Positions 23,122 to 48,268 of a stretch of 64,000 nt of DNA are shown in pieces; within the stretch, counting starts at the first letter, position 1, and each line of letters starts with the position of its first letter. The DNA is taken from positions 722,893-786,892 of the forward strand of contig SCUL01000002.1 of the NCBI GenBank assembly GCA_004297205.1, written 5' to 3'. The notes beneath the pieces were generated by a model, which was not told where the DNA came from, made no database searches, and was given only the letters and a program-made list of their open reading frames with translations. Both the position numbers and the translations under genes were made by a program. This DNA comes from Patescibacteria group bacterium. Its GTDB lineage: Bacteria; Patescibacteriota; Patescibacteriia; 2-12-FULL-57-11.

Positions 23122-23923
23122 GGAGACGGCGGCGCTGCTCGCCGCGCACGGCCTGCCGCTTTCGAAGTTGCGCGGACAGCACCTGCTGGTCGACGCGGCG
23201 CATCTTGCGCGCATCGTTGCGGCGGCCCGCCTGGGACGTGCTGACGCGGTGCTCGAGATCGGTCCGGGCACGGGCGTGCTGACGGAGAGGCTGCTCGCGA
23301 CCGGCGCGCGCGTCACGGCCGTCGAACTCGATCAGCGCATGGCGCACCTGCTCGCCGCGCGCTTCAGCGGCGAGCCGCGCTTCACGCTCGTGGTCGGTGA
23401 CGCGTTGCGGGAAGTGCCGCGCTTGTCGCTGCCGGCGGGCTACGCCGTCGTCGCCAACCTGCCGTACCAGATCACGACGCCGCTCCTCTGGGAGCTGGTC
23501 GGTCCGGATCGGCCGGCTGCCGCGCTGCCCACGGCCGTGACCGTGCTCGTACAGAAGGAAGTCGCCGACCGCATGTTGGCCCGGCCGCCGCGTCTGAACC
23601 TGCTGGCGCTGCTCATGCAGACCTATGGGGCAGGGGAGCGCATCGCCGTGGTGCCGCCCGGCGCGTTCCTGCCGCCGCCCAAAGTCACCTCGGCCTCCGT
23701 CCGGTTCGTGGCCGCGCCGGTCAAAGGCCGCGACCGCCTCCTTTCCCTGGCCCGGGCCGGTTTTTCCGCCCCGCGCCGCCTTCTGGCCGGGAATCTGGCC
23801 GCTGCCGGCATCGCCGACCGGGCTGCCGTCGAGGCCGCATTGACTGCGGCCGGACTGCCGGAAGACGTCCGGGCCGAGCGGCTTTCCCTGACCGATTGGC
23901 AAAGGGTCGCCGCCGCTTTATAA
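23102..23923 (+). CDS. rsmA: 16S rRNA (adenine1518/1519-N6)-dimethyltransferase RsmA/KsgA
   Basis: LRGQHLLVD, EIGPGTGVLT (SAM motif) and NLPYQITTP (the NLPY catalytic motif). Confidence 0.85.
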   Translation: MNRSVREETAALLAAHGLPLSKLRGQHLLVDAAHLARIVAAARLGRADAVLEIGPGTGVLTERLLATGARVTAVELDQRMAHLLAARFSGEPRFTLVVGDALREVPRLSLPAGYAVVANLPYQITTPLLWELVGPDRPAAALPTAVTVLVQKEVADRMLARPPRLNLLALLMQTYGAGERIAVVPPGAFLPPPKVTSASVRFVAAPVKGRDRLLSLARAGFSAPRRLLAGNLAAAGIADRAAVEAALTAAGLPEDVRAERLSLTDWQRVAAAL

Positions 23924-23945
23924 TGAAGGCACGTTTGGTGAAACG

Positions 23946-24596
23946 GTGGCTCTTCGTATGCAAACGGACCATGCGCCCTGGGCGGAAGAACATCGGACCG
24001 TGCTCGTGGGCCTCTTGCTCATCACGGTCGTGCTGTTCGTGCTCGGTGCGGCGCAGATCGTCCGTACCATCCGCGCTCCGTTCACCGCGCCGACCGGCGC
24101 CTACAAGACGACCGAACAGCTCCGGCAGGAAGAGGTCGCCGCGCTCAAAGCGCGCGACACGGACGGCGACGGCTTGTCCGACTACGACGAGCTGAACATC
24201 TACCTGACGAGTCCCTACCTTGAGGACACCGACTCGGACGGCGTTTCGGACGGAGACGAAGTGCGCGCCGGCGAGGATCCCAACTGCCCGCGCGGGCAGA
24301 ACTGCGGACCGGGTGCCAGCCAGGTCGGTCCCCGCGGCGCATCGCCGCAGGACCTGACATCGGCGCCGGGCAGCCGTCCGGGCGCGAACTCGCCGCTCTC
24401 CGGCAGCACCTTCGTCGGCCTCACGCCGGAGAACCTGGAGACGCTCGACGCGACGCAAGTCCGTTCGCTCCTGCGCGGCGCCGGCGTCCCGGAAGACGTG
24501 CTGAGCCAGTTCACCGATGAAGAGATCATGGCGCTGTTCCGGGAGACGCTCGCCAAAGAAGATCCGCTCGGCGCCGCCAGTTCGACGCCGCAGTAA
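23946..24596 (+). CDS. membrane-anchored protein with thrombospondin-type-3-like Ca-binding repeats
   Basis: N-terminal TM (VLVGLLLITVVLFVLGAA), then DTDGDGLSDYDE and DTDSDGVSDGDE (DxDxDGxxDxxE). GTG start at 23946 or ATG at 23958. The giant gene follows 15 nt downstream. Confidence 0.5.
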   Translation: MALRMQTDHAPWAEEHRTVLVGLLLITVVLFVLGAAQIVRTIRAPFTAPTGAYKTTEQLRQEEVAALKARDTDGDGLSDYDELNIYLTSPYLEDTDSDGVSDGDEVRAGEDPNCPRGQNCGPGASQVGPRGASPQDLTSAPGSRPGANSPLSGSTFVGLTPENLETLDATQVRSLLRGAGVPEDVLSQFTDEEIMALFRETLAKEDPLGAASSTPQ

Positions 24597-24611
24597 CCCG
24601 CCGCCCAGGCC

Positions 24612-27600
24612 ATGAAAGCGCGCGCGCGAAAAACATCGGCCGCCGTCCTGCTCTCGCTGACGCTCTTCGTCGGCGGGCTTGGCATAGCCGCGCCGCGGCC
24701 GGCGCACGCACAGCTCGCCGTCATCGACCCCGTGACCGGAGCCAACACCACGATCCGCAACTTCGAGGATTTCCTGGACAAGGTGCTCCTCGGCGGCGTG
24801 ACGATGGGCTTCATCAACGCCCTCAACTACTTTGCCCAAAAGATCGCCTACGATGCCGCGGTCTTCATCTCCGCCGGCGGCAAGGGGGAAGGGCCGCTCT
24901 TTCAATACAAGGACTTCGGTTCGTATCTGGGCGACGTGGCGCTCGGCGCCGCGGGCGAGGCCATCGGCACGTTCTCGGAAATCGGTTTTCTGGGTTTCAA
25001 TCTTTGCGAACCGGCCGGTCCGGACGCGCCGCGCATCAGTCTCGCCCTCCAGCTCGGCATCGCCTCGCAGTACGAGGCGCCGGAGCCGCGCTGCGAATGG
25101 AGCCGCATCAGCGAATCCTGGGACCAGTTCACGACGAGTTTCGAAACCGGCGAAGTGCTGCGCAACATCCAGCTGTCCGTCGGTCCGGGTCAGACCGGGC
25201 TGCACGGCCTTTTTCAGGCGCCGCTCAAGGTTGCGGAAAAAGTCAGCTCCGAAAAGCTGACCGGGGAGCTGGAACGCGAGGAGGGCCAAGGGTTCAAGTC
25301 GCTGACCGACGTCGTGACCGGCCGGCAGAAGACGCCGGCGGCGGTGGTCCGTGAAACGGCACTCGAGCAGACCGCCCGTTCGCCCGGCCAGCAGCAACAG
25401 TCCACGGCCTCGGTCATCGGTCCGGTGCTCTCCCAAGGCGTCCTCCAGGTGCTCTCGGTCGCCCTGGGTACCTTCGTGAACACGCTGGCCTCCCAGCTGC
25501 TGAACCGCGCCTTTGAAGAGGGAAGCTTCGACGTCACCGGCTTTGACCTGGCCTGCGCTTTCCGCGACGCCGTGCCGGGCTCGGCCGACGCGCTCTCCGG
25601 CCTGAACTGTCCGCCGGATCCGTCCGATCCCGAAGCGGTCACTCGCGGCGGCAAAGCCGCGGCGCGCGCCGCCTATTCGAGCTTGCTGGCGCCGCGCGTG
25701 CAGGAAGTCAACAGTTTTGACGCCGTGGCCGAGTTCACCGTCTGTCCGGATTCGTTCCGCGGTCCGCAGAACTGCGCCATGGATCCGGGATTCGCCGCCG
25801 GGGTCCGCGTCGCACTCCAGGGCGAGGCCATCACGATCCGCGACGCCCTGCAGCAGGGGTACTTGCATGCCGACTGGCCGCTCGTGCCGCCGACCGGCGA
25901 CGGGGCCTCGCGCAACGCCGATCCGTTCTGCTTCAACAACGGGTACTGCTACTCCAACTTGGTGAAGCTGCGCAAGGCGCGCATCATTCCGATCGGTTTC
26001 GAACTCGCCGCCGAAAAAGCGCTGCCGGACACGACGCTCGGCAAGGTGGTCGACGCATTCGACGATTGCAGCGGCGTGGACGGGCAGTTCTGCAAGCTGA
26101 TCGATCCGGACTGGCTCCTGAAATATCCGCTCACCCAGTGTCGCGCCAAAGTGTTCGGGCCGACGCTTTTGGCCGGCGACTCGGACATCCGCGGCGAAAC
26201 CTGCGTCGATGCGCCGACCTGCATCGCGGAGAACGCGGACGGCACGTGCGGCGCAGGCTTCGGCTACTGCACGCGGGAAAAGAACATCTGGCGGTTGGGC
26301 GGCGATGCCTGTCCCGCGCAATATGCCTCCTGCCAGGCCTACGCGGGGCCGGAGGGCCGCAACCTGTCCGTCCTGAAGAACGCGGTGGACAAGGCCATCT
26401 GCTCGTTCGAGAACGCCGGCTGCAACTGGTACGCCACGGAGCAGGATCCGGCGGACGGCCCGGGCGACTGGACGTATCAGCAGGGGCGCCTCTTCCTCGA
26501 CCGCGACGGCGGCACGTGCGAAGAGGAGCACGCCGGCTGCAGCGAATTCGTCGTCCGCGCCGGGCTGCAGGCCAACCTCGTCCGCAACCCGAGCTTTGAG
26601 TTGAACAATCAGACGGCGACCCGGCCCGACTTCTGGGAAGGCGTGCCGACCAGCTACGTGCGTGACATCGCGGCTGCGGACGGCACCGCGGCGGTCTCCA
26701 GCCTGACCGACGTCGCCCAGAGCATCGGCGTCGATCAGGGCGAAGCCTATGCGCTTTCGGCCACGGCCCGCCGCGCCACCGGCGCCGCAGGCGGCCGCGC
26801 GCTCGTCCGTCTGACCGTGACCGATGCCGCCGGCACTGCGCTTGGATTCGCGGCCGGAGATTCGACCTGCGCCATCAGCGGACCGGGCGGCACCGTGCTG
26901 ACGCTCACCGTCACGGCGGATACCGACGGCGCCTTCAGTCGCGATGCCTGTGCGTTCACCGTGCCATTCGGCGGCCAGGTCGTGCGTCTGACGGCCCGGA
27001 CCGAGGGCGGCGCGCTAGCCGACGCCATCCAGCTGGAATACGGCGCCACGGCGACCACCTTCCGTGGCAATACCTACCAAGGGGAGCAGCGCACCTACCT
27101 CAAACAGCCGCCGTCCTGGCTGGGCTGCACCGGCGAACTCAGCGATCCGCCGGAGTGCGACCAGTACGCCGGCGTCTGCCGGCCGGATGAAGTGGGCTGC
27201 GACGCCTACACGCCCGCTACCGGCGGCCTTTCGGTGCCGGGCATCGTCAGCCAGGAGAACCGCTGCGACGCGGCCTGCGCCGGCTACGCCACCTATAAAG
27301 AAGAAGCGTCGCCGCTGTCCTACGCCCGCTACCCGGTGCACCTCATTCCGACGCGCGGCCAGACCTGCTCCTTGGCCGCCGCGGGCTGCACGGAATTCAC
27401 CAATCTGGATGCCGCCGCCGCGGGCGGGGAAGCGCGCGAGTACTACGCCACGCTCCGAACCTGTGAAAAGCCGCGCCCGGGCGAAGTCGTGCCCGTGTAC
27501 TACACCTGGGAAGGCTCGGACACGACCGGCTTCCAGCTTAAGGAATGGCAGCTCAAGGCCGAAGTCGCTGCCGCGCCCGGCGGCGGACGTCCGCCGGCCT

Positions 27601-30600
27601 TGATCCGCGGCACGGATCCGGCCGGCTGTACGCGCGCCATCTACCTCGCCGGATCGAATCCCGACTGCCGCGAGTTCTTCGACGTCGCCGGCAACATTTC
27701 CTACCGTCTCTACTCCAAGACCATCGTCATTTCGCCGGACTGCCGCCCGCTGCGCATGACGGCGCTGCCGGTCGACGAGTCGGCAACGGCCGTCACCTGC
27801 GGCCTGCTCGGCGGACGGTTCGTGGACGGCTCCTGCAGCATTTGCGAAGGGCTGGGCGGCACCTGGAATGACCCGTCCGGCACGGACCTCGGCTGCACGT
27901 TTAACGCCTTTGCGCCGGAGTCGCGTTCTTGCACCGCCGCGGAATCGGGTTGCCGCCTGTACACCGGCAACGCCGGCGGGAACGTCCGCCGCGAGGGCTT
28001 CTGGGATTTCGAGAGCGGCGACCGCGAGGGTTGGGGGCCGTCGGACGCCACGACCGCCGTCTCCACGGAATCAACCGCCGTCGGCGGCCACTCCATCCGC
28101 GTCAATGCCGGCGGCACCCTGAGCCGCCCGGCGCCGGCCGCTGCCGCGAACAACACCTACTACCTGACGTTCTGGGGCAAGGGCCGCGGCGCCATCACCG
28201 CGCGTTTCTCCGGCGCACCGGCCGACCGCTCCTTCACGACCGGCGGGATCACGCTCGGCGCCACCTGGAACCGTTACTCGCTCGGGCCGGTCGTCGTCGA
28301 CTGGACGCCGGCCGCGGACGAGACGCTCGTCCTGACCGGTTTCAGCGACGTTTCCTTCGTCGACCGCATCGAGCTGACCCGCGTCGCGTCCAACATCGGC
28401 CTGGTCAAAGATTCTTGGACCATCCCCGCCATCTGCGATCAGAACGCCTCCGGCGCCTTCCTGCCGCAGGCCCAGCTCGGCTGCACCCAATACCGCGCAG
28501 CGCGCTCCGGCAACACGGAATATCTGACCGGCTTCTCCTCGCTCTGCCGGGAGAAGGCCGTGGGCTGCACCGCGTATGTCGCCACGCAGCAGTCGCCCTC
28601 GCCGGGCCGCGAAAGCTGGAACGCGCTGTGCGTGCTGCCGACGGCGGCCGCGGCGCCCACCCCCTGCAGCATCGACGGCCGCGAGGTTTGCACGGTCGGC
28701 GTCAACCGCCGTTCCTGCCGCTACCAGGCCGACGATCTGCCGTCGCCCGTGACCTTCGATATGTCCGCGGCCGGTGTCTGCCAGGTGGACGGCATCGTCA
28801 TCGTGGATGGCACCGGCACGCCGGTGCGCCGCGGCACCCCGGGGGAGTGCACCGGCCAGCCGCAGGACCTGGTGGTCGTGCCGGCCGACAAGAGCGTCTA
28901 TCTCGTCGATGACGAGAACAACCGGTGCGAACCGGAATTTGCCGGCTGCGCGCTGGTGGGCCGCTCCGACGGCCGCACCTGCACGCTCGCATCCGCCTGC
29001 ACCCCGGCCGCCGGCCGCGATACCTGCGACTGCTTGCAGGGCGGCGAGCTCCTGTGCCGGGTGAAAGCGGGGGAGACGGCCTGCCGCGCGCCGCTGCCGT
29101 TCCGCGAGCCGTTCGCTTCGACGACGCAGATCAGCTACGCCGAGACCACGGTCCTGAACGACCCCAAGCGCTACGACCAATCGCTTTGCTCGATCGAGGC
29201 GGTGGGCTGCCAGGAGTGGACCGAGATCGGCCCGACCACGGGCAAGGCCTACTTCAAGGATCCGGAAACGCGCACCTGCGAATACCGCGAGGACGTCCCG
29301 GACGGCAGCGGCCGCTCGCTCGACGGTTGGTACCGCACCGGCACGGACATTGCGTGCGACTCTACGCTGCTCGTCTCCGGCGAGACCTTCGGTATCTGGA
29401 AGAACGGCGACGAACAGTATCAGGGTTTCGTCGGCCAGTGCCCGGCCAGCTTCTCGACGTGTTCCGAGTTCCTCGATCCGGCGGACCGCGACACGCGCGC
29501 CCCGCTCGGACGGCCCTACTATTTCCTCAAGAACCAGAAAATCGACACGGCCAGCTGCCGCGGCCAGGTCAACCCGCTGAACGGCTGCGTGCTGTTCAAC
29601 GACACCACCGACCCGAACGTCACGGCCAACACGCTGGTCACGAACTCCGTCAGCGCCGAACGCGGCAACGCCTCGGTTGCGCCGGCGACCTGTCCGGGCC
29701 CGGGCTGCAGCCAGTGCATGTACCGGCGCTATGTCGGCCGCGTCGGTTCCGAGTTTGATGAGCTGTTCGAACGGACGGACGGCCAGGTTTGTGGCACGGT
29801 CAGCGACTGCACCGGCGCCCGCGACGACGAGGAGGCGACCTGCGTCACGGGAACCGGCGGCAACGCGGACTGTCCTGCTGGCGCGGCCTGCGCGGCGTAT
29901 TTCGTCAACGACCCGCGCGTCCATTTCATCGACGCATTCGGTTCCGAACACCCCACGGTCGACTCCTTCCTGGGCACCTTGGGGGTGCGGGGCAACGACG
30001 CCAACGTCGTTCTGAATGTCAGCCGCGACCGCGTCTGCGGCGAGTGGCTGGCCTGCCAGAGCTCGACGCCGGTCTGGGACCCGACGCGCAACCGTTTCAT
30101 CGAAATCTGCGATGCCATCGGCCGGTGCAACGAGTACCAGAAGAACGGCGACAGCACGGTCTGCGTCTCCTGGGTCAACCGTGAGCCGGAAATCCTGACC
30201 GAGGACACGTACACGCAGCGCAACGTGAGCTATGCGGGCCAGGATTACTCCGGTTACTCCATACCGCACCTCTTCGACGTCGAATCGCTGCGCCAGGTTC
30301 CGGTCGGCCGCTTCTGCACCGGAGACACCAGCCGTTCCTGCTCGAGCAACACTGACTGCGAATCGCCGGCCGCCGGCATCTGCAACCCGACGCCGGAGTT
30401 CCGCCTGTCTCGCGTCATCGGCAGCTGCCCCGTCACCGCAGAAGAGGGATCGACCTGCACCAACCCCGACTTCCCGGAGCGTGGCCAGGGCCGCTGCTGG
30501 CAGGGGACCTGCGCCCAGGCGCCGAACGGCAGTCCGGTGGAAACGGAAACGCTGCGTCGCGACGAACCGCAGCCGCTGCAGGCCTTCGGCGAGGCGCAAA

Positions 30601-33600
30601 ACGCCGAATCACCGGCCTGCCGTGCTTACCCGGAGCGCAGCTCGCCGTTCCCGAATGCCGTGGTCAAGGAGTGGAATCCGGCGGAATCAAGCGCCACTGC
30701 GCGCGCCGTGCCCGCCTCCACCCAGCCCGGTTTCAACCGTGCCGCGACCTGCGAGAAGGGGCAGGATTGCGAGTGCACCTATCGCAAGATCGAATACCGC
30801 GGCGGCCAGAACAAGCTCTACACCAGTCTTGACGACGTCGGGGTGCTCGCCCGCGTTCAGGGTCTGTGCTCCAGCGGTCCGCGCGACAAACAGCCTTGTG
30901 ATCCGCTGGCGGCCGCTGCAGCACCAATGGGGTGCGGCCAGGGCGGCACCTGCCAGACCATCGAGCGCAACAACATCGTCCAGGGGCTGAATGGCTACTG
31001 CTTGGAGCGCGACCTCGGATTCGCCATCAACGGCCGGCAGGAACACTCCTTCGCCGATCCGGCCCGCGCCTGCATCACCTGGCTGCCGGTGGACCGGCTG
31101 TCCGGCGCGGTGGACGTCTATAACAACTATCCGAACGCCGGCTTCAACATCGAGAACGCCGCCTTCTGCGCCGTGCCGGAAGCCTATAAGCGCGTGCGCC
31201 CCTTCAGCCGCGGCATCGACACCGGAGACGCCACGGTCACCATCGACGGGGAGGGCTATCCCTTCGGGTGGGGCTGCTTCGAAAGCACGAATTCGCCCGT
31301 GCAGGGGACCTCGTATCCGTTCCGCCGCGCGAGCGGTGGAAGTCCGCAGATCAACATCGCGAACAGCGGCGGCGGCAACATTCCCGAATACGCTTGTCCG
31401 ACGGAAGAAGGGTTCACGGTGATGTCGATGAACGAACATACCGATGCCGGACCGTTCGGGTGTTCGGGCGCCGACTGGGCGTCGGACGACGACTACCAGT
31501 TCCTCTGCGTTCCCCGCAATTCGCGACACATGGCGGATCCTTTGCAGCGACCCTGTCTTCCTCCGACCGGAGGCGTTCGTCTCGAGCGCTATAATCTGGA
31601 TGCCGGTCGCAACATGACCGAAGCCGAGATCCGTTCCCTGAACGGCGGGTACGCCGAGGTGTGGGGCATCCGGGGTTGGTTGAACAGCGCCGACAACAAC
31701 CTGCCGCGCCCTGACGGCATCACGCAAACGGACGGCACGGATCCCGTGCACACGGACAGCGCCATGTTCCACTATGCGGACTGCGTGGCCACGGACACGG
31801 TGGTTCCTGACGGCCCGGGCTCGCCGGGGACGCCGTTCCTGGGTTGCGAGGCGGCGGTCCGCGTCGCCACCTCCGGCCGCCCCGGCGAAAACAAGGTGAT
31901 GACCGGGCGCATCGGCAACGGCCGCGTCGTGCCGCCGGGGTCCCCCTTCACCGTCGCCACGGACGTCGCTTCCTTGCAGTACACATGGGCTGCCGAACCG
32001 GAACCGTTCGGGCGCGTGATTTCCACCGACGTGGACCTTCACACGGCCAGCTCTCCCGACTTTACGCCGGTTGAGATCAACACCTGCGTCAACGGCGGGG
32101 CGGACGGGTACTTCCTGTCAAACGCGTCGAATGCCTGCGAGACGGGCAGCCCGGTCACGAACATCCACAGCGAGACCCGGTCGTACGCCGAAATCAACGC
32201 GAGTCGCTCCGGCGCCGGAACAAGCTGCACGCCGGGCCGGTCCGGCGACCTCGACTGTTCAGAGCGCGCCGTCGCCGGGAGCCTCACCTGCTCCAAGGTG
32301 AGCGGCAGCAACCTCGGCTGCTTCGTCGGGTGCAACGACGCGGACCGCGACGACGCCTTCTGCGCGGACGGCAGCGCCGACGGCAACGGCACGGGCCAAA
32401 ACCTGGGCCGTTGCGACCGGATCGTCGGCGGATCGACTTTCTGCACGAACTCCCTCGCCGGCGATTGGGTTGATAATGAAGGCGCCTGTGAGAGCGATGC
32501 CAACCGTCAGATCGTCGGCACATGCCGTAACGCCGGGCCGAAGGATGGCAGCCAGTGCACGGACCAGTACGATTGCACGCATTTGAGATGTGAATCGCTC
32601 GGGCCGGAGAGCGGCGGAGGTGGATACTGCACCGGCGGAGGCGGCGGCGCCGCGATCTGCGACATCTCGAACCACTACTGCCGGTCGTACGCCTCCGATG
32701 GAGGAACGGTGCCGACGCTGTCGCGCGTCACCGACCGGTTGAAACAACTCTTCGCCCGAGTGTACGGCGCACTCCTCTACTCGCCGCAAAACGTTCAGGC
32801 CGTCTGTGATGCTGCGACCCGGCGCTGCAACAACAATCCGTTGCGCACCTGCACGCCCGGCATCGCCGGAGACGAGGAATGCAAGCTGCCCGATTACACG
32901 CCGGTGCGCGCCGGTCAGACGCTTGCCGGTGCCAACGTCGATGCCGCCGGCGACCTGCAATACAATACCGGTGACCTCGTCTACGACATCAGCAACACGA
33001 TCGGCGCGCCGCCGGTGGTTCGCTCGGTGGGCGACTGCAACACGCAGAACCAGTGTCTGGAGGGTCCCGAGGGGCAGGTGAGCGTGAACGGCGTCGACGA
33101 CGGCCAGGTCAAGGGCGGCAACGGCAACAAGAACATCACGCTGCGCTTCTTCGCCTACGCCCAGAACGACCAGATGCCGCTCCGGAACATCACCGTGGAC
33201 TGGGGCGACGGCACCAATCCGTCCGGCAACAACCCCGGTTCCTCCTACAAGAACCGCCGTGGTTATGAGTACCAGCGCGTGCCCCGTCCCGACGGCACGG
33301 AGGCGCTGGAGCTGACCTCGCTCTGTGACGGTGATACCTTCGGCACGTCGCCCGACGCCTGCGATGCCATCGCGCCGCTCGCCTTCAACCACGCCTACAT
33401 CTGTAACCGCGACGCCACGGCCCGCTGCTTCGATGGCACCAACGACTGCGTGGAGATCGTCGACGGCCGCCCGGCCTGCGTCTACAAGCCTCGCGTCCAG
33501 GCGCTCGACAACTGGGGTTTCTGCAACGGCACCTGCGCCGGCGGTGCGCCGACCACGGACTCGAACTTCTGCTACGACGGATCGACCAACCCGTCGCTCG

Positions 33601-33728
33601 CGCTCAGTGAAGGTCGCAATGAGTGCTTGATCTCAGCCACACCCGCAGCGGTTGAGGCCCTCCGAATCCGTGGCATCGACCCATTCACACCGTTCGCCGG
33701 AGAAGTCGTGGTCTTCCCGCGCGAGTAG
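24612..33728 (+). CDS. giant (3038 aa) secreted cysteine-rich surface protein
   Basis: Uninterrupted 9.1-kb ORF. Signal peptide MKARARKTSAAVLLSLTLFVGGLGIAAPRPAHA. Cys-poor first ~260 aa, then very Cys-rich throughout. No TM or sortase motif at the C-terminus. Confidence 0.8.
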   Translation: MKARARKTSAAVLLSLTLFVGGLGIAAPRPAHAQLAVIDPVTGANTTIRNFEDFLDKVLLGGVTMGFINALNYFAQKIAYDAAVFISAGGKGEGPLFQYKDFGSYLGDVALGAAGEAIGTFSEIGFLGFNLCEPAGPDAPRISLALQLGIASQYEAPEPRCEWSRISESWDQFTTSFETGEVLRNIQLSVGPGQTGLHGLFQAPLKVAEKVSSEKLTGELEREEGQGFKSLTDVVTGRQKTPAAVVRETALEQTARSPGQQQQSTASVIGPVLSQGVLQVLSVALGTFVNTLASQLLNRAFEEGSFDVTGFDLACAFRDAVPGSADALSGLNCPPDPSDPEAVTRGGKAAARAAYSSLLAPRVQEVNSFDAVAEFTVCPDSFRGPQNCAMDPGFAAGVRVALQGEAITIRDALQQGYLHADWPLVPPTGDGASRNADPFCFNNGYCYSNLVKLRKARIIPIGFELAAEKALPDTTLGKVVDAFDDCSGVDGQFCKLIDPDWLLKYPLTQCRAKVFGPTLLAGDSDIRGETCVDAPTCIAENADGTCGAGFGYCTREKNIWRLGGDACPAQYASCQAYAGPEGRNLSVLKNAVDKAICSFENAGCNWYATEQDPADGPGDWTYQQGRLFLDRDGGTCEEEHAGCSEFVVRAGLQANLVRNPSFELNNQTATRPDFWEGVPTSYVRDIAAADGTAAVSSLTDVAQSIGVDQGEAYALSATARRATGAAGGRALVRLTVTDAAGTALGFAAGDSTCAISGPGGTVLTLTVTADTDGAFSRDACAFTVPFGGQVVRLTARTEGGALADAIQLEYGATATTFRGNTYQGEQRTYLKQPPSWLGCTGELSDPPECDQYAGVCRPDEVGCDAYTPATGGLSVPGIVSQENRCDAACAGYATYKEEASPLSYARYPVHLIPTRGQTCSLAAAGCTEFTNLDAAAAGGEAREYYATLRTCEKPRPGEVVPVYYTWEGSDTTGFQLKEWQLKAEVAAAPGGGRPPALIRGTDPAGCTRAIYLAGSNPDCREFFDVAGNISYRLYSKTIVISPDCRPLRMTALPVDESATAVTCGLLGGRFVDGSCSICEGLGGTWNDPSGTDLGCTFNAFAPESRSCTAAESGCRLYTGNAGGNVRREGFWDFESGDREGWGPSDATTAVSTESTAVGGHSIRVNAGGTLSRPAPAAAANNTYYLTFWGKGRGAITARFSGAPADRSFTTGGITLGATWNRYSLGPVVVDWTPAADETLVLTGFSDVSFVDRIELTRVASNIGLVKDSWTIPAICDQNASGAFLPQAQLGCTQYRAARSGNTEYLTGFSSLCREKAVGCTAYVATQQSPSPGRESWNALCVLPTAAAAPTPCSIDGREVCTVGVNRRSCRYQADDLPSPVTFDMSAAGVCQVDGIVIVDGTGTPVRRGTPGECTGQPQDLVVVPADKSVYLVDDENNRCEPEFAGCALVGRSDGRTCTLASACTPAAGRDTCDCLQGGELLCRVKAGETACRAPLPFREPFASTTQISYAETTVLNDPKRYDQSLCSIEAVGCQEWTEIGPTTGKAYFKDPETRTCEYREDVPDGSGRSLDGWYRTGTDIACDSTLLVSGETFGIWKNGDEQYQGFVGQCPASFSTCSEFLDPADRDTRAPLGRPYYFLKNQKIDTASCRGQVNPLNGCVLFNDTTDPNVTANTLVTNSVSAERGNASVAPATCPGPGCSQCMYRRYVGRVGSEFDELFERTDGQVCGTVSDCTGARDDEEATCVTGTGGNADCPAGAACAAYFVNDPRVHFIDAFGSEHPTVDSFLGTLGVRGNDANVVLNVSRDRVCGEWLACQSSTPVWDPTRNRFIEICDAIGRCNEYQKNGDSTVCVSWVNREPEILTEDTYTQRNVSYAGQDYSGYSIPHLFDVESLRQVPVGRFCTGDTSRSCSSNTDCESPAAGICNPTPEFRLSRVIGSCPVTAEEGSTCTNPDFPERGQGRCWQGTCAQAPNGSPVETETLRRDEPQPLQAFGEAQNAESPACRAYPERSSPFPNAVVKEWNPAESSATARAVPASTQPGFNRAATCEKGQDCECTYRKIEYRGGQNKLYTSLDDVGVLARVQGLCSSGPRDKQPCDPLAAAAAPMGCGQGGTCQTIERNNIVQGLNGYCLERDLGFAINGRQEHSFADPARACITWLPVDRLSGAVDVYNNYPNAGFNIENAAFCAVPEAYKRVRPFSRGIDTGDATVTIDGEGYPFGWGCFESTNSPVQGTSYPFRRASGGSPQINIANSGGGNIPEYACPTEEGFTVMSMNEHTDAGPFGCSGADWASDDDYQFLCVPRNSRHMADPLQRPCLPPTGGVRLERYNLDAGRNMTEAEIRSLNGGYAEVWGIRGWLNSADNNLPRPDGITQTDGTDPVHTDSAMFHYADCVATDTVVPDGPGSPGTPFLGCEAAVRVATSGRPGENKVMTGRIGNGRVVPPGSPFTVATDVASLQYTWAAEPEPFGRVISTDVDLHTASSPDFTPVEINTCVNGGADGYFLSNASNACETGSPVTNIHSETRSYAEINASRSGAGTSCTPGRSGDLDCSERAVAGSLTCSKVSGSNLGCFVGCNDADRDDAFCADGSADGNGTGQNLGRCDRIVGGSTFCTNSLAGDWVDNEGACESDANRQIVGTCRNAGPKDGSQCTDQYDCTHLRCESLGPESGGGGYCTGGGGGAAICDISNHYCRSYASDGGTVPTLSRVTDRLKQLFARVYGALLYSPQNVQAVCDAATRRCNNNPLRTCTPGIAGDEECKLPDYTPVRAGQTLAGANVDAAGDLQYNTGDLVYDISNTIGAPPVVRSVGDCNTQNQCLEGPEGQVSVNGVDDGQVKGGNGNKNITLRFFAYAQNDQMPLRNITVDWGDGTNPSGNNPGSSYKNRRGYEYQRVPRPDGTEALELTSLCDGDTFGTSPDACDAIAPLAFNHAYICNRDATARCFDGTNDCVEIVDGRPACVYKPRVQALDNWGFCNGTCAGGAPTTDSNFCYDGSTNPSLALSEGRNECLISATPAAVEALRIRGIDPFTPFAGEVVVFPRE

Positions 33729-38551: not shown

Positions 38552-40843
38552 ATGCGTGCGATCAGTGTCATTACGTTCTCGTTTGTTGTCGTTGGTTGTG
38601 TCACGGAGGAGGGACGCGGTGGAGCGCTCACCTCGATCACGAGTGACGATGCAGGAGTGTCCGAACACCCGCTGCTCCTCCTGCCGTTCCCGAACCGGAC
38701 CGCGTACCAGTGTGTCCAGGGAGCCGGAGGTTCCTATAGCCACTCTGGTCGGTCGACCCGGTACGATCTCGACTTCGATACTCCCAATGACAGGAACGAG
38801 GTCGTCGTCGCACCGGCAAGCGGGGTTGCCTACATCCACCGTTCCACGGTCGGATTCGGCAATCACGTCAACATCGACATCGGCGGCAACCTGTTCACGG
38901 TCGCGGCCCACCTCCGGAGTTTCCTCGTCGAGGATGGTCAGGAGGTGCTCGTCGGTCAGCCGATCGGGATCGAAGGTACGACCGGCAACTCGATGGGGGA
39001 CCACATCCACTTCGGACTCCACCGCGGTGACCCGAGGGAAGATGCGGCCCTGAGCGATTCGATCCCCGCCGAGAGGATCGTCGCGCGGGATACGTTCGGG
39101 AGCGGCGGGTTCCGCGAATTCCGTTCAGCGGACTTCATCTGTGACCTCGATTGGGGCCACTCGTACGAGTCCAACAACGGAGTGACGCGGCACCCGGTCG
39201 GGACGCTGATCAAGGAGCATGGCCGTCCGGAGATCTATCTCGTCTGCGCGGACGGGGCGATCTGCTGGATCACGAGCGAGGACAACTTCCTCTCGCGGAG
39301 GTTGTACTACTCGCACACCGACCAGTGGGCGCGCGTCGTCGAAGTCAGCCGCGAGGAGATCGACTGCTACGATCGTGGACCGGACTTGGACTACCCTGTG
39401 ACCATGCGGTTCCGGAGGTGCCGGGTTTCCGCATGGTCAAGCGAACGCGCGGTGTACCTCGCCGTCGACGACCGGGGCAACCGCTTCCGCCGGCGCGTTC
39501 CTGTCCCTGAGGGGACCGAGGAGTTCGTTGCCCTCCTTCGATCCTGGGGATTCTCCCCGGTCGAAATCGAAGAGGGGGGAGAGGCCTGCTCCTACGCCGA
39601 GGGAGAGACGCTGTACCTGCGTGACGGGACCGTCGTGCAGGAGGCGTCCGATCCGCGTTTCCGGATCATCTCCAACGACGGTCTGGCATACCGACTCGAT
39701 CCGTTGGATGCCTGGTCGATGCGTTTCCTGCCGCGTCATGTCCTGCAGGCACCGGACGGTGCAACCACTCTGTTGATCCAAGGCGTCGATCCCGACCACC
39801 GCTGGTGGACGAGGGAAGACTCAACGGCATGCCGGACGCCGAGTCCGCCCGGAACCCCGGGCGGCGGCGGAACGGGGGGCGACGGCTCCGATGCCGGCCC
39901 GCTGCCTATGCCCGACGCGGGGGTGCCCTCCGCGCCGGATGCCGGCACCGTCTGCACGCCGCGCGCCGAGACCTGCAACGGCCTCGACGACGACTGCGAC
40001 GGGAGCATCGACGAGGGTGACGCGTGCCGCGTCTGCGTCGCCGGGAGCGAACGCTCCTGCGTGACGTCGTGCGGCTCCGCCAGCGTCCAGGTCTGCTTCT
40101 CGGACGGTTCCGGTTGGAATCCCTGCCGCATCCCGGCGGAGACCTGCGGCAACGGCCGGGATGACAACTGCGACGGATACGTCGACGACGGCTGCTGCAG
40201 GCCCTCCACGGAGACCTGCGACGGCCGCGACAACGACTGCGACGGCGTCATCGACAACGGTGGCGTCTGCGCTCCGCCGCCCGCCTGCGTGGGCGGAAGC
40301 GACCGCGTCTGTACCACGTCCTGCGGATCGACCGGTTCGCAGCGCTGCTACAGCGACGGACACGGCTGGGCGTCGTGCCGGCCGCCGGACGAGATCTGCA
40401 ACGGTCTCGACGACGACTGCGACGGTCTCCGCGACGAAGTCTGCGCTCCGCCGCCGACGCCCGATGCGGGGCCGCCGTCCGTACCGGACGCGGGTCCCGC
40501 CTCGTGCGGACACGCGGTGCGGGTGCGCTTCTCGGCGTACGCCGGATCGTGGAGCTTCGGCTCCGGCTTCGGCACGCCGCACCCCTCCTACGAGGCGGTG
40601 GCGGGTGCCGTCGACCGGCTGTGGAGCTGTGCCGCCCCCGGTTGGCTGCTCCTGAACGGCAGCTTCCCGGGCGGCGCCTGGATGTGCGGCGAGTGGCCGG
40701 CGGGCACCTTCCAGGTGCCGTACGGCCTGCCGGAAGTCACGGTCGACGGGATTCCGGCCACCGTCACGCCCTGGCACAACCCGGAGATCCCGGGCGGGAT
40801 CGGCTGCGACCTGCGCGTCTGCGTGGGCGGCGGCTGCCCCTAG
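38552..40843 (+). CDS. M23 family peptidase lipoprotein with MopE-like Cys-rich repeats
   Basis: Lipobox VVVGCVT. LytM/M23 motifs HVNIDIGG...GTTGNSMGDHIHFGLH. Four CxGxDDDCDGxxDE repeats each followed by CxTSCGSxxxQxCxxDGxGW. AAGGAG RBS. Confidence 0.75.
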   Translation: MRAISVITFSFVVVGCVTEEGRGGALTSITSDDAGVSEHPLLLLPFPNRTAYQCVQGAGGSYSHSGRSTRYDLDFDTPNDRNEVVVAPASGVAYIHRSTVGFGNHVNIDIGGNLFTVAAHLRSFLVEDGQEVLVGQPIGIEGTTGNSMGDHIHFGLHRGDPREDAALSDSIPAERIVARDTFGSGGFREFRSADFICDLDWGHSYESNNGVTRHPVGTLIKEHGRPEIYLVCADGAICWITSEDNFLSRRLYYSHTDQWARVVEVSREEIDCYDRGPDLDYPVTMRFRRCRVSAWSSERAVYLAVDDRGNRFRRRVPVPEGTEEFVALLRSWGFSPVEIEEGGEACSYAEGETLYLRDGTVVQEASDPRFRIISNDGLAYRLDPLDAWSMRFLPRHVLQAPDGATTLLIQGVDPDHRWWTREDSTACRTPSPPGTPGGGGTGGDGSDAGPLPMPDAGVPSAPDAGTVCTPRAETCNGLDDDCDGSIDEGDACRVCVAGSERSCVTSCGSASVQVCFSDGSGWNPCRIPAETCGNGRDDNCDGYVDDGCCRPSTETCDGRDNDCDGVIDNGGVCAPPPACVGGSDRVCTTSCGSTGSQRCYSDGHGWASCRPPDEICNGLDDDCDGLRDEVCAPPPTPDAGPPSVPDAGPASCGHAVRVRFSAYAGSWSFGSGFGTPHPSYEAVAGAVDRLWSCAAPGWLLLNGSFPGGAWMCGEWPAGTFQVPYGLPEVTVDGIPATVTPWHNPEIPGGIGCDLRVCVGGGCP

Positions 40844-40847
40844 GCAA

Positions 40848-40896
40848 GGCCCGTATCACCGCGCTCCGCGCGGCTGGTACGGGCCTCTTTTCTTTT
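40848..40896 (+). terminator. rho-independent terminator
   Basis: GGCCCGTA...TACGGGCC stem followed by TCTTTTCTTTT. Confidence 0.6.
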
Positions 40897-40923
40897 GTAT
40901 ACTGCGAGCGTTGCATAAAGCCC

Positions 40924-43626
40924 ATGCGGAACGCATTTTCCCGTTTCATTGCCGCATTCCCGGGCCGGAGATTGGCGCTGCCAGTCGCGTTGTTGGTATT
41001 CGTCGGCGTGTTCGGACTGGCCGGCCACGTCCATGCGGAAGGGCCGCTCTCCGGGATCGAACTTGCCATCGCCAACATCATCGGCAGCATCGCCGTGTTG
41101 TTCGGCTGGGCGATGACGCAGATCCTCCTGTTCCTGACGGAGTTTTTGGTGGCCGTGGCCGGCTACAACGAGTTCGCCACCGCCGACGCCGTGGACCGCG
41201 GTTGGGTGATCGTGCGCGACCTCACGAACATGTTCTTCATCCTGGTGATGCTGATCATCGCCTTCGGCACGATCCTGGGGGTGGAGGAGTACAGCTACAA
41301 GCGCATGCTGCCCCGGCTCTTGATCATGGCCGTGGTCATCAACTTCTCCAAAGTCATTTGCGGTCTGCTGATCGATTTTTCGCAGGTCGTGATGCTGACC
41401 TTCGTGAACGGATTCTCCGCCATCGCCGGCGGCAACTTCGTCCGGATGTTCCAGGTTTCCGGCGCGTGGAACATGATCAACACGAGCAATGACGCATTGC
41501 TTGCCTCCGAAGCGAGTTTCACATGGGCAACGGTCGGCTCCCTGGTGTTGGGCGGCGTGCTGATGATGGTCGCGGCCGTGGCCGTCTTCATCATGACCCT
41601 GATGCTGGTCGGACGCATCGTCATGTTGTGGCTCCTGATCGTGATGTCGCCGCTGGCATTTTTCCTCTCCGCGTTTCCCAAAGGGAAAGCAGCGGAAATG
41701 TACGGCAAATGGTGGGGGATGTTCGGCAACTACGTGATCATCGGGCCGTTCATCGCCTTCTTTCTGTGGTTATCCCTGGCCGTGGCCGGATCCGGCGAGA
41801 TCGCCAGCTCCATGCAGATCGTCCGCGAAGGCGCGGGTGGCGCGGGGACCTCGTTGTTCGTCTCCGACCTCGGCGGCCAGCAGCAGTTCTACTCTTTCGT
41901 CATTGCTATCGCGCTTTTGATGGGCGGCATGTCCATGTCCGCGCAGTTCGGCGTGATGGGCGGCAGCATGATGTCCGGCGCGGCCAGCTACATCCAGAAC
42001 AAAGGCGTCGGCGCCGTGAAGGGGACGGGACGCCTCATCGGCCGGACGGCGCGGCTCGGTGATTCGTGGGTCGCGACGAAGACCGGAGGCGTCAGCGTCG
42101 CTTCGGTCCTTTCGATTCCGCGCCGTCTTGGTGAAGGCACGGAGGCTCGCATCAAGGACAACTACGAGAAAGGAAAGAAGGAAGCGCTCTTGGGTTTGCG
42201 CGAGGGCGGCATCAAGGGCCGCATCCAGGGCTTCGTAGGCGCCTCCGACGAGGTGGCACGGAAAACGGGCATCATTCAGTTCGCCGGCGGAGCCGTCGCC
42301 GCGACGGCACGCGCCATTCCGCAATGGGTGAAGAGGGAAGGATCGAACCGCAGCACCTATCTTCAAAAAGCGGAGGAGGCGCAAAAAGAGGCAGACACCG
42401 AGAAATCCAACAAGGAGGCGGCGGAGCGGGAGAAGGCGGCTGCGGAGGAAACGCTCAAAACGAAGCGCGCTGAGATGGATCGTCTGGACAGCGTCGATGT
42501 CCGTCCGCGGGATTTTGCCCAGCTTCAGTCGTTGCGTGACAGCGCCGAGAAGGCTGGTATGGCGAACCAAGTCTCGGCGTTGGACACCATCATCAACAAG
42601 GGGCGGACCGGGGCGGCGGTTACAGGTGGAGACATTGAGACCTTGCAGGGGACGGGCGTGGGCGGGCCGCTCATGAACCGTTTGGTCGAACAGGCAGAGA
42701 GCAAGCGTCGCTCGCTCGGCGCCACGTACGACGCAAAACGCGCGGAGATCGCGGCTGCCGCAGGGGCCGTTGCCACTGCGGAAGCGAACTTCAATTCGTC
42801 GTCGAGCGCGGAGGCGGCCGCAAAGGCCCGTGTCGAGAAGTGGACGAAGAGTGCGGACAAGACCGGCGTTTCCGGTTTCGGTCCGGAAGTGCCCAAGCAT
42901 GCCATGGATGCCACGGTCACCTCGGCGATGCTCGACGAGGCGCTCAAGGCCAAGGACTACACCTTGGCGCAGCAGCTCGTGGTTAAACTGGGTGAAGACG
43001 GTGAACTCGCCGAGGCCTTGAAGATGCGCAAGCATGGTGAAGGCCTGGAAGGCGTTAAAGCCTTCGCCAAGGAGCTCCAAGGCAAGGGCATGAGCCACAG
43101 CTCGACTATGACTGCGCTGTCCGAAGTCGACTCCAAGTACAAGGCCAAGGGCAATACGGAATATTCCGGCATGATCAAGGGTGGTCCGGGCGGTCGGCTG
43201 CGCTTCGTCAACAACGACGGCGACAGTCTTGAGTATGGGGCGGGCCGTCTCAAGTCCGGCAGCAAGGGGAGCATGGAAAGCAAGCTCCGGGAGGCCAACA
43301 AAACGTCGTTGTTCCAGGTGTCCGACGCAAAAGGCGGCAAGGTCATCGACGCAGCAGGCGCGGCGCTCATCGCCCAGAGCATCGGTGCCATCGTCAAAAC
43401 GGTGGAGAGCAACCGCATGTCCGGCGACATGATGCGCATGTTCGTCGATAAACAGAAGGAAGTCTTGCAGGCCGTTCAGGATGCCGGCATTGCTGCCAGT
43501 GACAAGCGGTTCGAGCAGCTCAAGGACGCCATCGGCAAGATGACGGAACAGATGAAGAGCGTGCCGCCGGACGTCGGCGACGCCATCCGCAAGGTCTACG
43601 CCGCCAAGAAAGCACGCGGCGCATAA
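40924..43626 (+). CDS. VirB6/TrbL-like multi-TM protein with long Ala/Lys/Glu-rich C-terminal extension
   Basis: Signal peptide, then about 8 TM helices with a TrbL-like organisation (aa 1-350), then a roughly 550-aa hydrophilic coiled-coil-like tail. Start moved to ATG 40924; the upstream extension overlaps the M23 gene and terminator. Confidence 0.65.
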   Translation: MRNAFSRFIAAFPGRRLALPVALLVFVGVFGLAGHVHAEGPLSGIELAIANIIGSIAVLFGWAMTQILLFLTEFLVAVAGYNEFATADAVDRGWVIVRDLTNMFFILVMLIIAFGTILGVEEYSYKRMLPRLLIMAVVINFSKVICGLLIDFSQVVMLTFVNGFSAIAGGNFVRMFQVSGAWNMINTSNDALLASEASFTWATVGSLVLGGVLMMVAAVAVFIMTLMLVGRIVMLWLLIVMSPLAFFLSAFPKGKAAEMYGKWWGMFGNYVIIGPFIAFFLWLSLAVAGSGEIASSMQIVREGAGGAGTSLFVSDLGGQQQFYSFVIAIALLMGGMSMSAQFGVMGGSMMSGAASYIQNKGVGAVKGTGRLIGRTARLGDSWVATKTGGVSVASVLSIPRRLGEGTEARIKDNYEKGKKEALLGLREGGIKGRIQGFVGASDEVARKTGIIQFAGGAVAATARAIPQWVKREGSNRSTYLQKAEEAQKEADTEKSNKEAAEREKAAAEETLKTKRAEMDRLDSVDVRPRDFAQLQSLRDSAEKAGMANQVSALDTIINKGRTGAAVTGGDIETLQGTGVGGPLMNRLVEQAESKRRSLGATYDAKRAEIAAAAGAVATAEANFNSSSSAEAAAKARVEKWTKSADKTGVSGFGPEVPKHAMDATVTSAMLDEALKAKDYTLAQQLVVKLGEDGELAEALKMRKHGEGLEGVKAFAKELQGKGMSHSSTMTALSEVDSKYKAKGNTEYSGMIKGGPGGRLRFVNNDGDSLEYGAGRLKSGSKGSMESKLREANKTSLFQVSDAKGGKVIDAAGAALIAQSIGAIVKTVESNRMSGDMMRMFVDKQKEVLQAVQDAGIAASDKRFEQLKDAIGKMTEQMKSVPPDVGDAIRKVYAAKKARGA

Positions 43627-43632
43627 CGCGAT

Positions 43633-44934
43633 ATGGCTTACACCTTCGACATCGACAACCAGCCGACGCTCAACGAGCTTTCCGCCTCGGTGCGTTATGC
43701 CGTGCAGACCAGGAACCGCAAAGGTGCGGACGAGTTCTGCGCCTTCTACGAGCAGTTCCTGCGCGAGAATCCCAAGTTCCGCACGGAGTCGCCACAATTC
43801 GCCGGTGCCTACGACGTGCTCTACGACCAGGCCCGCTGGGTGGCGCTGCCGCATCTGGCCGAGGAGAACGACGTCGTCCAGCTGTTCGAGCAGAAGGTGA
43901 ATGCGTTGAAATTGCAGCCGGAGGGATACGACCTCAAGGACTTGTTCCGTGAGCGGCTGTTGATCACTCCTCTCGAGCAGCGCAACGCCTTCAAGGCCCG
44001 CATCCGCGACGCCCTGCTGCGCAATAAGGAGCAGCTCACCAAACCGTTCCCGGCCATGGGCAGCACGGTGGAGCGGGCCGGTACGGTGTCGAACTGGGTC
44101 ACGGAGTATCTTTCCGTCGTCCGCGACGCCAAGAACGACGCCTTGCTTCAGGCGCGCTTCTTCAACGAGCATCCCGGTTTCCGCACCCTGCTGCCGGACG
44201 AACAGGCCGTTCTCAAAAACATTTTCGGCGTGTTGGAGATGACGCGGCTCGATTCCACCAAAGTGGAAGGCTTCGAGGGGTCGAAGCTCGTCGAGTTGGA
44301 CGGCAAGCTCATGGAATACGACGGCGGCGGATTCTCCGAAGTCGGGCGCGATCTGATGGAAGAGCTCAACAAGCTGCCCGCCTCCTACCGCCCGCCGACG
44401 CAGAAGGAAAAATTGCGCGACCGTTTCAACGATCCGGAACCCGAGCGCCTCGCGATCGCCGCGTCCATGGAGGCGCTGCGCGCCGAGGCCGGTTCCAATC
44501 CGCAGAAGCTGCGCGAACTGCTGGCGCGGGACCTCACGGTTCGGACGGGACAAGCCAAACCCAACGTGCCGCGCGCCGCCGCGGCGCTCCGGCTCTACGC
44601 CGCCGTCCACGACTTCAAGACGCTGCTCGCCGAACGCGCCCTGAACGACCTAATTCGGGCCTTCCTCGAAAAAGAAAAGCGCACCGTGGACCTCGACAGC
44701 TTCAAGGTGTTTCCGCAGGCGCCGCAGTTCCTGAAACTCTTCCTGCAGGTGGTCTTCGAGGACGCGCTTGGCCTGCCGGAAGCGGAAGCGGCGCGCCAGG
44801 CGCTGCAGGTGGCCAACGTGGCCCGCGAGCGGGGAGACGGCGCGCTCATGGACGTCGCTTTCTACGACGAGGAAGACGATGCCTTCCACTGGACCGTGCC
44901 GCTGCGCAAACCGGCCGCCGTCACTGTCCGATAA
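43633..44934 (+). CDS. hypothetical cytoplasmic protein
   Basis: 433 aa, no TM, no family recognised. Begins 7 nt after the VirB6-like stop. Confidence 0.45.
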   Translation: MAYTFDIDNQPTLNELSASVRYAVQTRNRKGADEFCAFYEQFLRENPKFRTESPQFAGAYDVLYDQARWVALPHLAEENDVVQLFEQKVNALKLQPEGYDLKDLFRERLLITPLEQRNAFKARIRDALLRNKEQLTKPFPAMGSTVERAGTVSNWVTEYLSVVRDAKNDALLQARFFNEHPGFRTLLPDEQAVLKNIFGVLEMTRLDSTKVEGFEGSKLVELDGKLMEYDGGGFSEVGRDLMEELNKLPASYRPPTQKEKLRDRFNDPEPERLAIAASMEALRAEAGSNPQKLRELLARDLTVRTGQAKPNVPRAAAALRLYAAVHDFKTLLAERALNDLIRAFLEKEKRTVDLDSFKVFPQAPQFLKLFLQVVFEDALGLPEAEAARQALQVANVARERGDGALMDVAFYDEEDDAFHWTVPLRKPAAVTVR

Positions 44935-44994
44935 AAAAAGAACGCCGGCAGCCGTGGGATGAAACTCCACGACTGCCGGCTCCGGCCCCTTGAG

Positions 44995-45483: not shown

Positions 45484-45602
45484 CGAAATGCTCCTTGCCG
45501 CGGTGCGGCGTCCAGACACGCTCCTGGCAGAATGAGGCGAATTCCTCCTTCTTCCAAGAACGCGCTACCATACTATAAATACGGGGTTTTGTCAAGGGGG
45601 AT

Positions 45603-47459: not shown

Positions 47460-47592
47460 AACGTCCGCGTATGGCGCATTTCATCGTTAGCAGCTGCGGT
47501 GCTCCCTCAACGTACGCTTTGGTACGTTTCGGTTCGCTCCTCGCTGCTGCCTCGAACTGCGCGCATACCCGGCCGTTCTAGAATCGACTGAT

Positions 47593-48267: not shown

Positions 48268-48268
48268 T

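Follow-up and report, generated by a model that had tools for sequence, protein, structure and literature searches.

A 64,000-nucleotide (nt) stretch of the genome of a Patescibacteria group bacterium (contig SCUL01000002.1, positions 722,893 to 786,892; hereafter the window) encodes a pair of adjacent, co-oriented genes whose products are a small membrane protein, here called the partner, and an exported, cysteine-rich giant protein of 3038 amino acids (aa). Based on comparative genomics and partial structure prediction, we infer that the pair builds a membrane-tethered, disulfide-rigidified surface structure that presents lectin modules and a fast-evolving region to a changing external ligand, most plausibly the surface of a host, and we would give this genomic reading a probability of roughly 0.5. 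The pair and the segments of the giant protein are laid out as follows (positions in the window):

23896..23924, + strand: promoter-like TTGGCA-17-TATAAT with 11/12 sigma-70-like matches, 22 nt 5' of the partner gene (motif scan)
23946..24596, + strand: partner gene, small single-pass membrane protein (PF18884 match, four-lineage alignment, 62/62 synteny)
24612..33728, + strand: giant gene, 3038-aa exported, cysteine-rich, non-repetitive protein (open reading frame list, self-BLAST, family alignment)
24612..24710, + strand: signal peptide, aa 1-33, predicted cleavage between AHA and Q (sequence reading; the family consensus retains A33 and the AxA-Q site)
24711..25721, + strand: cysteine-poor N-terminal module, aa 34-370, with one conserved cysteine pair, C132/C161 (structure model; profile searches)
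25725..26558, + strand: most conserved block, aa 372-649, with the motif YCYSNLVKLRKARIIPIGxELAA and four C-x6-C hairpin motifs (alignment; predicted local distance difference test score (pLDDT) of 61-88 for aa ~372-507)
26559..27101, + strand: predicted jelly-roll module 1 (lectin fold) of carbohydrate-binding module (CBM) type, aa ~650-830, of which aa 700-800 are fast-evolving
27114..27953, + strand: conserved cysteine-rich beta region, aa 835-1114 (pLDDT 74-91 over most of aa 892-1119)
27954..28421, + strand: predicted CBM-type jelly-roll module 2, aa ~1115-1270 (profile match to the CBM22 structure 4xup, PF02018 in homologs, structure model)
28422..31211, + strand: central disulfide-rich, nearly all-beta scaffold, aa 1271-2200 (alignment and structure model)
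31212..32993, + strand: hypervariable region, aa ~2200-2794, with heavy insertions and deletions (alignment, comparison of close relatives)
32994..33725, + strand: conserved C-terminal domain, aa 2795-3038, with the motifs FFAxAxxDQMPIRxVxVDWGDG (PKD-like) and DNWG[WF]CNG and a beta-strand-like conserved tail

The two open reading frames (ORFs) and their close spacing had been reported in the original prediction, i.e., an earlier reading of the bare sequence, and both are confirmed by the ORF list: the partner ORF (23946-24596, GTG start, 216 aa) and the giant ORF (24612-33728, ATG start, 3038 aa, 9117 nt) are separated by exactly 15 nt, counted from the partner stop ending at 24596. NCBI places the partner start at an ATG at 23958, which shortens the protein to 212 aa. 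The giant gene makes up 14.2% of the window, as estimated before, and its product is 100% identical to EPO33_05145 of Patescibacteria, which bears out the earlier guess at an origin in the candidate phyla radiation (CPR). With a GC content at third codon positions (GC3) of 0.85 and a uniform coding signal, the codon-position GC of the gene fits a genuine coding sequence, and the composition of the window is smooth (GC 65% overall and 60-69% throughout). These values are unusually high for a CPR genome, and high-GC bins of Uhrbacteria, e.g., FULL_63_20 and FULL_57_19, are among the closest named relatives. Assembly chimerism and internal frameshifts, named earlier as what would undo the finding, are excluded because the giant ORF is unbroken in 62 other species represented by independent species-level assemblies (loci that include the 5' end; 2375-3482 codons, median 3106). 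It can be aligned collinearly over its whole length with homologs P0002-P0008 at 60-79% identity. Two loci (L011 and L039) have a shorter ORF with the C-terminal part of the giant gene (2376 and 2656 codons, respectively) that starts farther 3' of the partner than elsewhere, ca. 2.3 kb in L011 (681-1277 versus 3572-10699); this could be due to a frameshift, an assembly error, or a real N-terminal loss.

Several features of the giant protein argue for its export and for structural disulfides. Its N-terminus, MKARARKTSAAVLLSLTLFVGGLGIAAPRPAHA followed by QLAV, displays upon reading by eye the parts of a Sec signal peptide, namely an n-region (KARARK), an h-region (AAVLLSLTLFVGGLGIAA), and an AxA site (AHA before Q), and an AxA-like cleavage site is found in 77/80 homologs, so that the signal peptide recognized previously stands. 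As also described before, a cysteine-poor N-terminus is followed by a cysteine-dense remainder: the protein contains 140 cysteines (4.6%), of which the first 300 residues hold just C132 and C161. About 70 of these cysteines are at least 96% conserved in the family alignment, and 69/80 homologs have an even number of them. Cysteine pairs at i,i+7 spacing (C-x6-C) occur 15 times versus 6.9±2.4 times in shuffled sequences, and nine of these copies follow a hairpin motif, C-x5-[GAST]-C-x-[FYW], on invariant cysteines. A DsbA-like protein encoded in the window (see below) is in keeping with disulfide bonding. Because the conserved cysteines, even counts, and C-x6-C excess come together with a signal peptide, they point to structural disulfides in an extracellular protein, and the sequence thus supports a Sec-exported and disulfide-rich giant.

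The giant protein seems to have no anchor of its own, as had been noted. Beyond the signal peptide, it contains no hydrophobic stretch of transmembrane (TM) grade save a weak one at aa 267-286, and a TM helix at this position was rejected since it would put ca. 2700 disulfide-rich residues into the cytoplasm. No hydrophobic stretch follows past aa 286, and neither an LPXTG motif nor the hydrophobic segment and basic tail of a sortase anchor are found at the C-terminus (...FAGEVVVFPRE) or at those of homologs, which look alike. Internal repeat periodicity, proposed earlier as something to look for, was absent in self-BLAST, where the short cysteine hairpin alone recurs, and the idea of a repetitive adhesin was rejected on these grounds. 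MopE-type or Myxococcus cysteine repeats had no Pfam or NCBIfam match in the giant protein.

Two segments of the giant protein have a predicted CBM or lectin fold. The family profile matches the CBM22 structure 4xup at E=5.4e-5 as well as CBM16 structures, and PF02018 (CBM_4_9) is found in 11/15 homologs at E≤0.01 (best 6.9e-10). Both modules have the predicted beta-jelly-roll (galactose-binding-like) fold, and we think that they may serve glycan or host binding. AlphaFold models cover aa 33-1130 and aa 1115-2230 (mean pLDDT 60 and 62, respectively, with some individual domains predicted confidently), and neither gave a match to a solved structure above the CBM hits or a catalytic fold. The most conserved block at aa 372-649 has a fold without match, and the confidently modeled region at aa 835-1114 has no fold match of its own (among the 50-60 best matches listed, all are jelly-rolls or contain one). 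The central scaffold (aa 1271-2200) consists of conserved blocks interspersed with variable inserts (aa ~1350-1500, 1700-1800, and 1900-2000), and no catalytic or other known fold was detected in it. A PDB profile search with the N-terminal module, which AlphaFold predicts with low confidence as all-helical, was empty at E≤10; the idea, prompted by the sequence, of a VirB5/TrbJ-like or other helical module of type IV secretion systems (T4SSs) is unsupported by this search and by the model (pLDDT <50). The C-terminal domain had no PDB sequence match and a weak PKD_4 match (E=0.003) in 1/12 members. Matches to tailspikes and tail fibers in the fold searches stem from the CBM-like receptor-binding domains of those proteins, and a phage origin was rejected since no relative was found in IMG/VR viral contigs.

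Conservation along the giant protein forms a mosaic. Among close relatives, the scaffold is 80-95% identical, while identity drops to 26-66% at aa ~700-800 (in CBM module 1), at aa ~1700-1800, and above all at aa ~2200-2800 (26-70% if the whole hypervariable region up to aa ~2794 is considered). The two CBM-type modules, this hypervariable region, and the position of the pair upstream of a T4SS cluster described below had all been missed in the original prediction.

The giant proteins form a large, length-conserved orthologous family rather than a set of fast-evolving, lineage-unique adhesins, as judged from sequence comparison. A first search returned 82 homologs, nearly all of 2600-3300 aa. 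Scanning a single genome for each GTDB species with the motif DNWG[WF]C[NTA]G revealed at least 324 species with a relative; by title these are mostly Uhrbacteria but also Magasanikbacteria and Falkowbacteria, besides Patescibacteria without further classification. Searched as a profile against 1.84 billion cluster representatives, the first 372 residues matched at least 2384 clusters (at 50% identity), of which 882 had E≤1e-30, and in all complete proteins within the best 150 matches this module is N-terminal in a protein of 2500-3900 aa. The family alignment is collinear in architecture with near-invariant cysteines, and each locus examined has one giant gene. The pair is conserved across the Uhrbacteria/Magasanikbacteria/Falkowbacteria part of Patescibacteria, probably GTDB class ABY1. 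Many contigs with the operon (L005, L007, L013, L016, and others) bear the evidently wrong title "uncultured Gammaproteobacteria bacterium", which they received in a bulk third-party annotation (TPA) assembly submission. No Pfam or NCBIfam model matches the giant protein of the window, and we found no published description of the family in the literature searched. Giant cysteine-rich exported proteins of CPR bacteria have already been noted in general terms (PMC4736985). In the libraries and literature searched, this family appears to be undescribed regarding its architecture, obligatory partner with thrombospondin type 3 (TSP3) repeats, mosaic evolution, and T4SS-side position.

Gene order indicates that the partner and the giant gene form an operon because the partner lies immediately 5' of the giant gene on the same strand in 62/62 loci with upstream flank and the median gap from partner stop to giant start is 6 nt (≤50 nt in 57/63 pairs; five pairs overlap), which upholds the co-transcribed two-gene unit proposed earlier. 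The promoter-like site in front of the pair is suggestive only: it is unique within positions 23000-35200, a count not above the shuffle expectation of 0.8. As previously reported, the partner combines a TM helix with two TSP3-like repeats. The single N-terminal helix lies at aa ~18-40, and Pfam family TSP3_bac (PF18884) matches two stretches at aa ~71-110 with 36.1 bits (cut-off 25; E=5.6e-9). The protein also carries an APF motif, a CxxGxxCG loop (C114/C120), a Pro/Gly/Ser linker, and a helical C-terminal tail. Four divergent lineages share the TM helix, the APF motif, the two TSP3 repeats with invariant aspartates, the CxxGxxCG loop, and the helical tail, and the partner family comprises at least 1227 proteins, all from Patescibacteria. 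In locus L004, a second small TSP3_bac protein (118 aa; 18229-18585) is encoded directly 3' of the giant gene and before the T4SS cluster. Of the earlier proposal that the upstream protein is the tether or partner of the giant, the consistent pairing has held up, and tethering itself is plausible given obligatory co-occurrence and topology.

Downstream of the giant gene, the window carries the following genes of a complete-looking monoderm-type (MPF-FATA-like) T4SS cluster, in which a VirB4 ATPase and PrgI/VirB3 are encoded together:

38552..51419, + strand: whole co-oriented monoderm-type T4SS cluster (Pfam matches; homology to the L004 cluster; recurs in 43/51 loci)
38552-40843, + strand: M23 peptidase with MopE repeats (Pfam)
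40375-43626, + strand: polytopic protein of ca. 1000 aa with eight predicted TM segments, no Pfam match, start uncertain
43633-44934, + strand: protein without assignment
45603-47027, + strand: protein without assignment
47028-47459, + strand: PrgI/VirB3 (PF12666, 44.1 bits, cut-off 27)
47593-48267, + strand: TraC-like protein
48269-50173, + strand: VirB4 (PF19044/AAA_10)
50170-50793, + strand: NTF2/SnoaL-like protein, possibly VirB8-like (just below cut-off)
50757-51419, + strand: ComFC

This neighborhood recurs widely. With gene order and strand preserved, homologs of the M23, polytopic, PrgI, TraC-like, or VirB4 proteins are encoded within 10 kb past the giant gene in 43 of the 51 loci whose downstream flank is at least 9 kb long (counted by tblastn; jackhmmer on locus ORFs did worse since ORFs cut by locus ends are lost). 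In 37/51 loci, an M23/MopE homolog separates the giant gene from the T4SS genes, and the polytopic protein is encoded 0.8-8.5 kb past the giant stop codon in 29/51. In three loci, L062, L070, and L004 (the last being the most distant homologous locus compared), giant gene and cluster adjoin each other directly. By a rough estimate, chance would place the cluster within 10 kb 3' of a random gene in a genome of ca. 0.9 Mb in about 1-2% of cases. A survey of T4SSs in Patescibacteria described radA and comF in ABY1 T4SS loci, as in the window, and an enrichment of KsgA near virB4, ascribed the location of the T4SS to proximity to the origin, and detected no PrgB-like adhesin in the phylum; the giant family is unmentioned there (PMC12102498). 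Genetic tests, made in one species, a cultivated Saccharibacterium, showed the T4SS to be essential there, with a role that was called "completely unknown" (PMC11665869).

Some further observations concern this neighborhood. The radA gene at 55982-57343 on the minus strand is in line with the ABY1 pattern (PMC12102498). The 1083-aa polytopic ORF (GTG at 40375) shares its first 469 nt with the 3' end of the M23 gene; since no TM segment precedes the one at aa 192, its true start is probably further downstream. With 5.1% cysteine, the M23/MopE protein is a second heavily disulfide-bonded exported protein, and a 174-aa ORF on the minus strand within the cluster (44995-45519) has 10 cysteines (5.7%), two hydrophobic segments, and no Pfam match. 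Directly 3' of the giant gene lies a convergent gene for a PEGA-domain protein (33866-34798, minus strand), which L001 likewise has downstream. The 598-aa ORF that comes next in the window (34995-36791, plus strand) has no family match, and its coding status is doubtful since it did not pass the GC3 filter. Farther away, the window encodes a thiol-disulfide oxidoreductase:

59827..60456, - strand: DsbA-like thiol-disulfide oxidoreductase (PF01323, E=1.2e-18)

The gene is real, as originally predicted, but calling it dedicated to the giant protein is not warranted given that it is encoded on the opposite strand at a distance of 26 kb and that the window encodes other cysteine-rich exported proteins. 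No specific link to the giant gene was found, and the enzyme could be a general oxidant for such proteins. Adjoining it on the same strand is a gene for a 409-aa protein without Pfam match (60461-61690), which could be a re-oxidant partner of DsbB/VKOR type.

How might the pair work? The first gene would produce a signal-anchored membrane protein that displays two calcium-binding TSP3 repeats, a small disulfide loop, and a helical tail outside the cell. The second product, a protein of ca. 330 kDa, would be exported via Sec, cut after AHA33, and fold outside the cell into a rigid, non-repetitive, and mostly beta structure with ca. 70 disulfides. Its cysteine-poor helical N-terminal module would dock on the membrane partner so that the giant protein is held at the surface, where the disulfide scaffold could project the two CBM jelly-rolls and the fast-evolving region of ca. 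600 aa outward, where they would attach to glycans or further structures on the surface of a host or partner cell. Because T4SS genes follow the pair closely and on the same strand in most species, we tentatively propose by analogy that it may also act as a contact or adhesin accessory of the adjoining T4SS, similar to PrgA/B/C encoded upstream of prgH-I-J in plasmid pCF10, and functional coupling of this kind would go beyond the shared neighborhood itself. It is similarly possible, if still doubtful, that the pair is the missing extracellular arm of the ABY1 T4SS, i.e., a disulfide-locked, lectin-bearing contact device that would recognize the surface of the host through its fast-evolving region and set the channel against it.

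The Enterococcus faecalis system is instructive both for what is shared and for what is not. In the pCF10 T4SS, PrgB (aggregation substance), PrgA, and PrgC are Sec-exported surface proteins that provide cell-cell contact, and the channel genes encode PrgH/VirB6, PrgI/VirB3, and PrgJ/VirB4. As with the giant pair, the genes for PrgA/B/C precede monoderm-type T4SS channel genes in the same orientation, and a polymer-binding, lectin-like module is included. However, the giant protein shows no sequence or fold similarity to PrgB and no LPXTG sortase anchor, is ca. 2.3 times as large, and has ca. 70 predicted disulfides, whereas PrgB is cysteine-poor. In place of the wall anchoring of PrgB, a dedicated membrane partner would hold the giant protein, and in the window the pair is a transcription unit separate from the channel genes.

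Other giant exported proteins of CPR bacteria resemble the family in part. The large proteins of Ca. Peribacter riflensis are likewise cysteine-rich (7.2±2.4%; 1655±751 aa) and mostly exported with signal peptides, and a role in attachment has been proposed for them (PMC4736985). However, they are encoded in a strain-variable multi-gene cluster, and some have FG-GAP or weak Myxococcus cysteine-repeat similarity (PMC4736985), while by these descriptions the giant family is set apart by one gene per locus, orthology across orders, its own partner, and a place next to the T4SS. The FhaB-domain exoproteins of Patescibacterium danicum are also exported ABY1 giants with proposed host adhesion, but with more than 5000 aa, shuffled FhaB domains, and no full-length homologs among 2.1 million Patescibacteria proteins (PMC11809585) they are the opposite of the strictly conserved architecture seen here. 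CBM4/CBM9/CBM16/CBM22 modules (PF02018) are usually appended to glycoside hydrolases, whereas here they seem to be embedded in a giant non-enzymatic scaffold. The partner shares its DxDxDGxxDxxE calcium-binding repeats with Myxococcus CglD and MtsD (surface adhesion/cohesion proteins by their NCBIfam names), yet it has just two repeats in a 212-aa signal-anchored protein, scores 24 bits versus the 400-bit equivalog cut-offs of NCBIfam, and carries a family-specific APF motif and helical tail.

Several observations weigh against a tethered host-contact structure linked to the T4SS. The model of the N-terminal module that would dock on the partner is of low confidence (pLDDT <50), and ca. 60% of the giant protein lacks a confident model or fold, so that a hidden enzymatic or other domain is possible. 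The CBM modules of the window protein itself stay below Pfam thresholds: it matched no Pfam family at E≤1 and hence did not reach the gathering threshold of PF02018. Seven of the 51 loci have no cluster gene within 10 kb, and in the window ca. 4.8 kb including two minus-strand genes lie between the giant gene and the cluster, which means that they are not one transcript there. Furthermore, the loci are phylogenetically related and the groESL, prfA (encoding a release factor, RF), sua5, and ksgA genes upstream are also syntenic, so that inherited gene order stays a live alternative explanation for the neighborhood.

The alternative that survives best builds on this last point. The giant protein might be a constitutive scaffold of the envelope or wall, e.g., an S-layer-like coat or a cell-shape or spacer protein, that has nothing to do with hosts or the T4SS and owes its neighborhood to inherited gene order near the origin. 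One copy of conserved length at each locus examined, set within a housekeeping block (groESL, RF, epimerase, sua5, ksgA) that is conserved in the same genomes, would suit such a protein well, as would the published link between T4SS location and origin proximity (PMC12102498). We nevertheless consider it improbable, if still a serious contender, because 4.6% cysteine and 330 kDa are atypical of S-layer proteins, no SLH, CWB2, or other wall-binding domain was found with Pfam or NCBIfam, and fast-evolving regions together with lectin modules better fit the recognition of a changing external ligand. Of the two roles that the original prediction had suspected, S-layer factor is thus disfavored by the cysteine content, size, and lack of a wall-binding domain, and host contact is the reading that we favor.

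It is quite unlikely, in our view, that the giant is instead a secreted or surface enzyme that degrades polysaccharides or cell walls, with its CBMs targeting a catalytic domain that has so far escaped recognition to glycans of the host wall for nutrients. This idea draws on the classical attachment of CBM4/9/16/22-type modules to glycoside hydrolases, seen in the PDB matches, on the M23 peptidoglycan peptidase as a conserved neighbor, and on the large parts of the protein without assignment. Still less probable is a rapidly diversifying adhesin of antigenic-variation type like the P. danicum FhaB giants or the strain-variable Peribacteria giants: both classes are giant exported CPR proteins suggested to serve attachment (PMC11809585, PMC4736985) and aa 2200-2800 indeed evolve fast, but full-length collinear orthologs with invariant cysteines in at least 324 species and the absence of FhaB, repeat, or shuffled-domain features stand against it, and the strict orthology seen in the alignments has largely refuted it. 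Finally, an assembly chimera or genes fused by sequencing errors can be dismissed as next to impossible in view of the unbroken ORF across independent assemblies, uniform coding signal, smooth composition, and collinear alignment.

Much of bacterial diversity belongs to Patescibacteria, whose few representatives in culture are found attached to the cells of a host. How these organisms attach to their hosts and what they exchange with them is largely unknown. With its own membrane partner, lectin modules, a fast-evolving region, presence in hundreds of species, and proximity to a T4SS, the pair described here is a concrete candidate for a host-contact structure in the Uhrbacteria/Magasanikbacteria/Falkowbacteria lineages, and the giant gene could be used as a marker for this clade. 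As a very large family outside Pfam and NCBIfam without a solved relative, the giant proteins also hold folds that are mostly new territory for structural biology. If the pair is indeed the missing arm of the T4SS, it would be the adhesin that went undetected in the 2025 survey of T4SSs in Patescibacteria, in the form of a protein without homologs outside the phylum.

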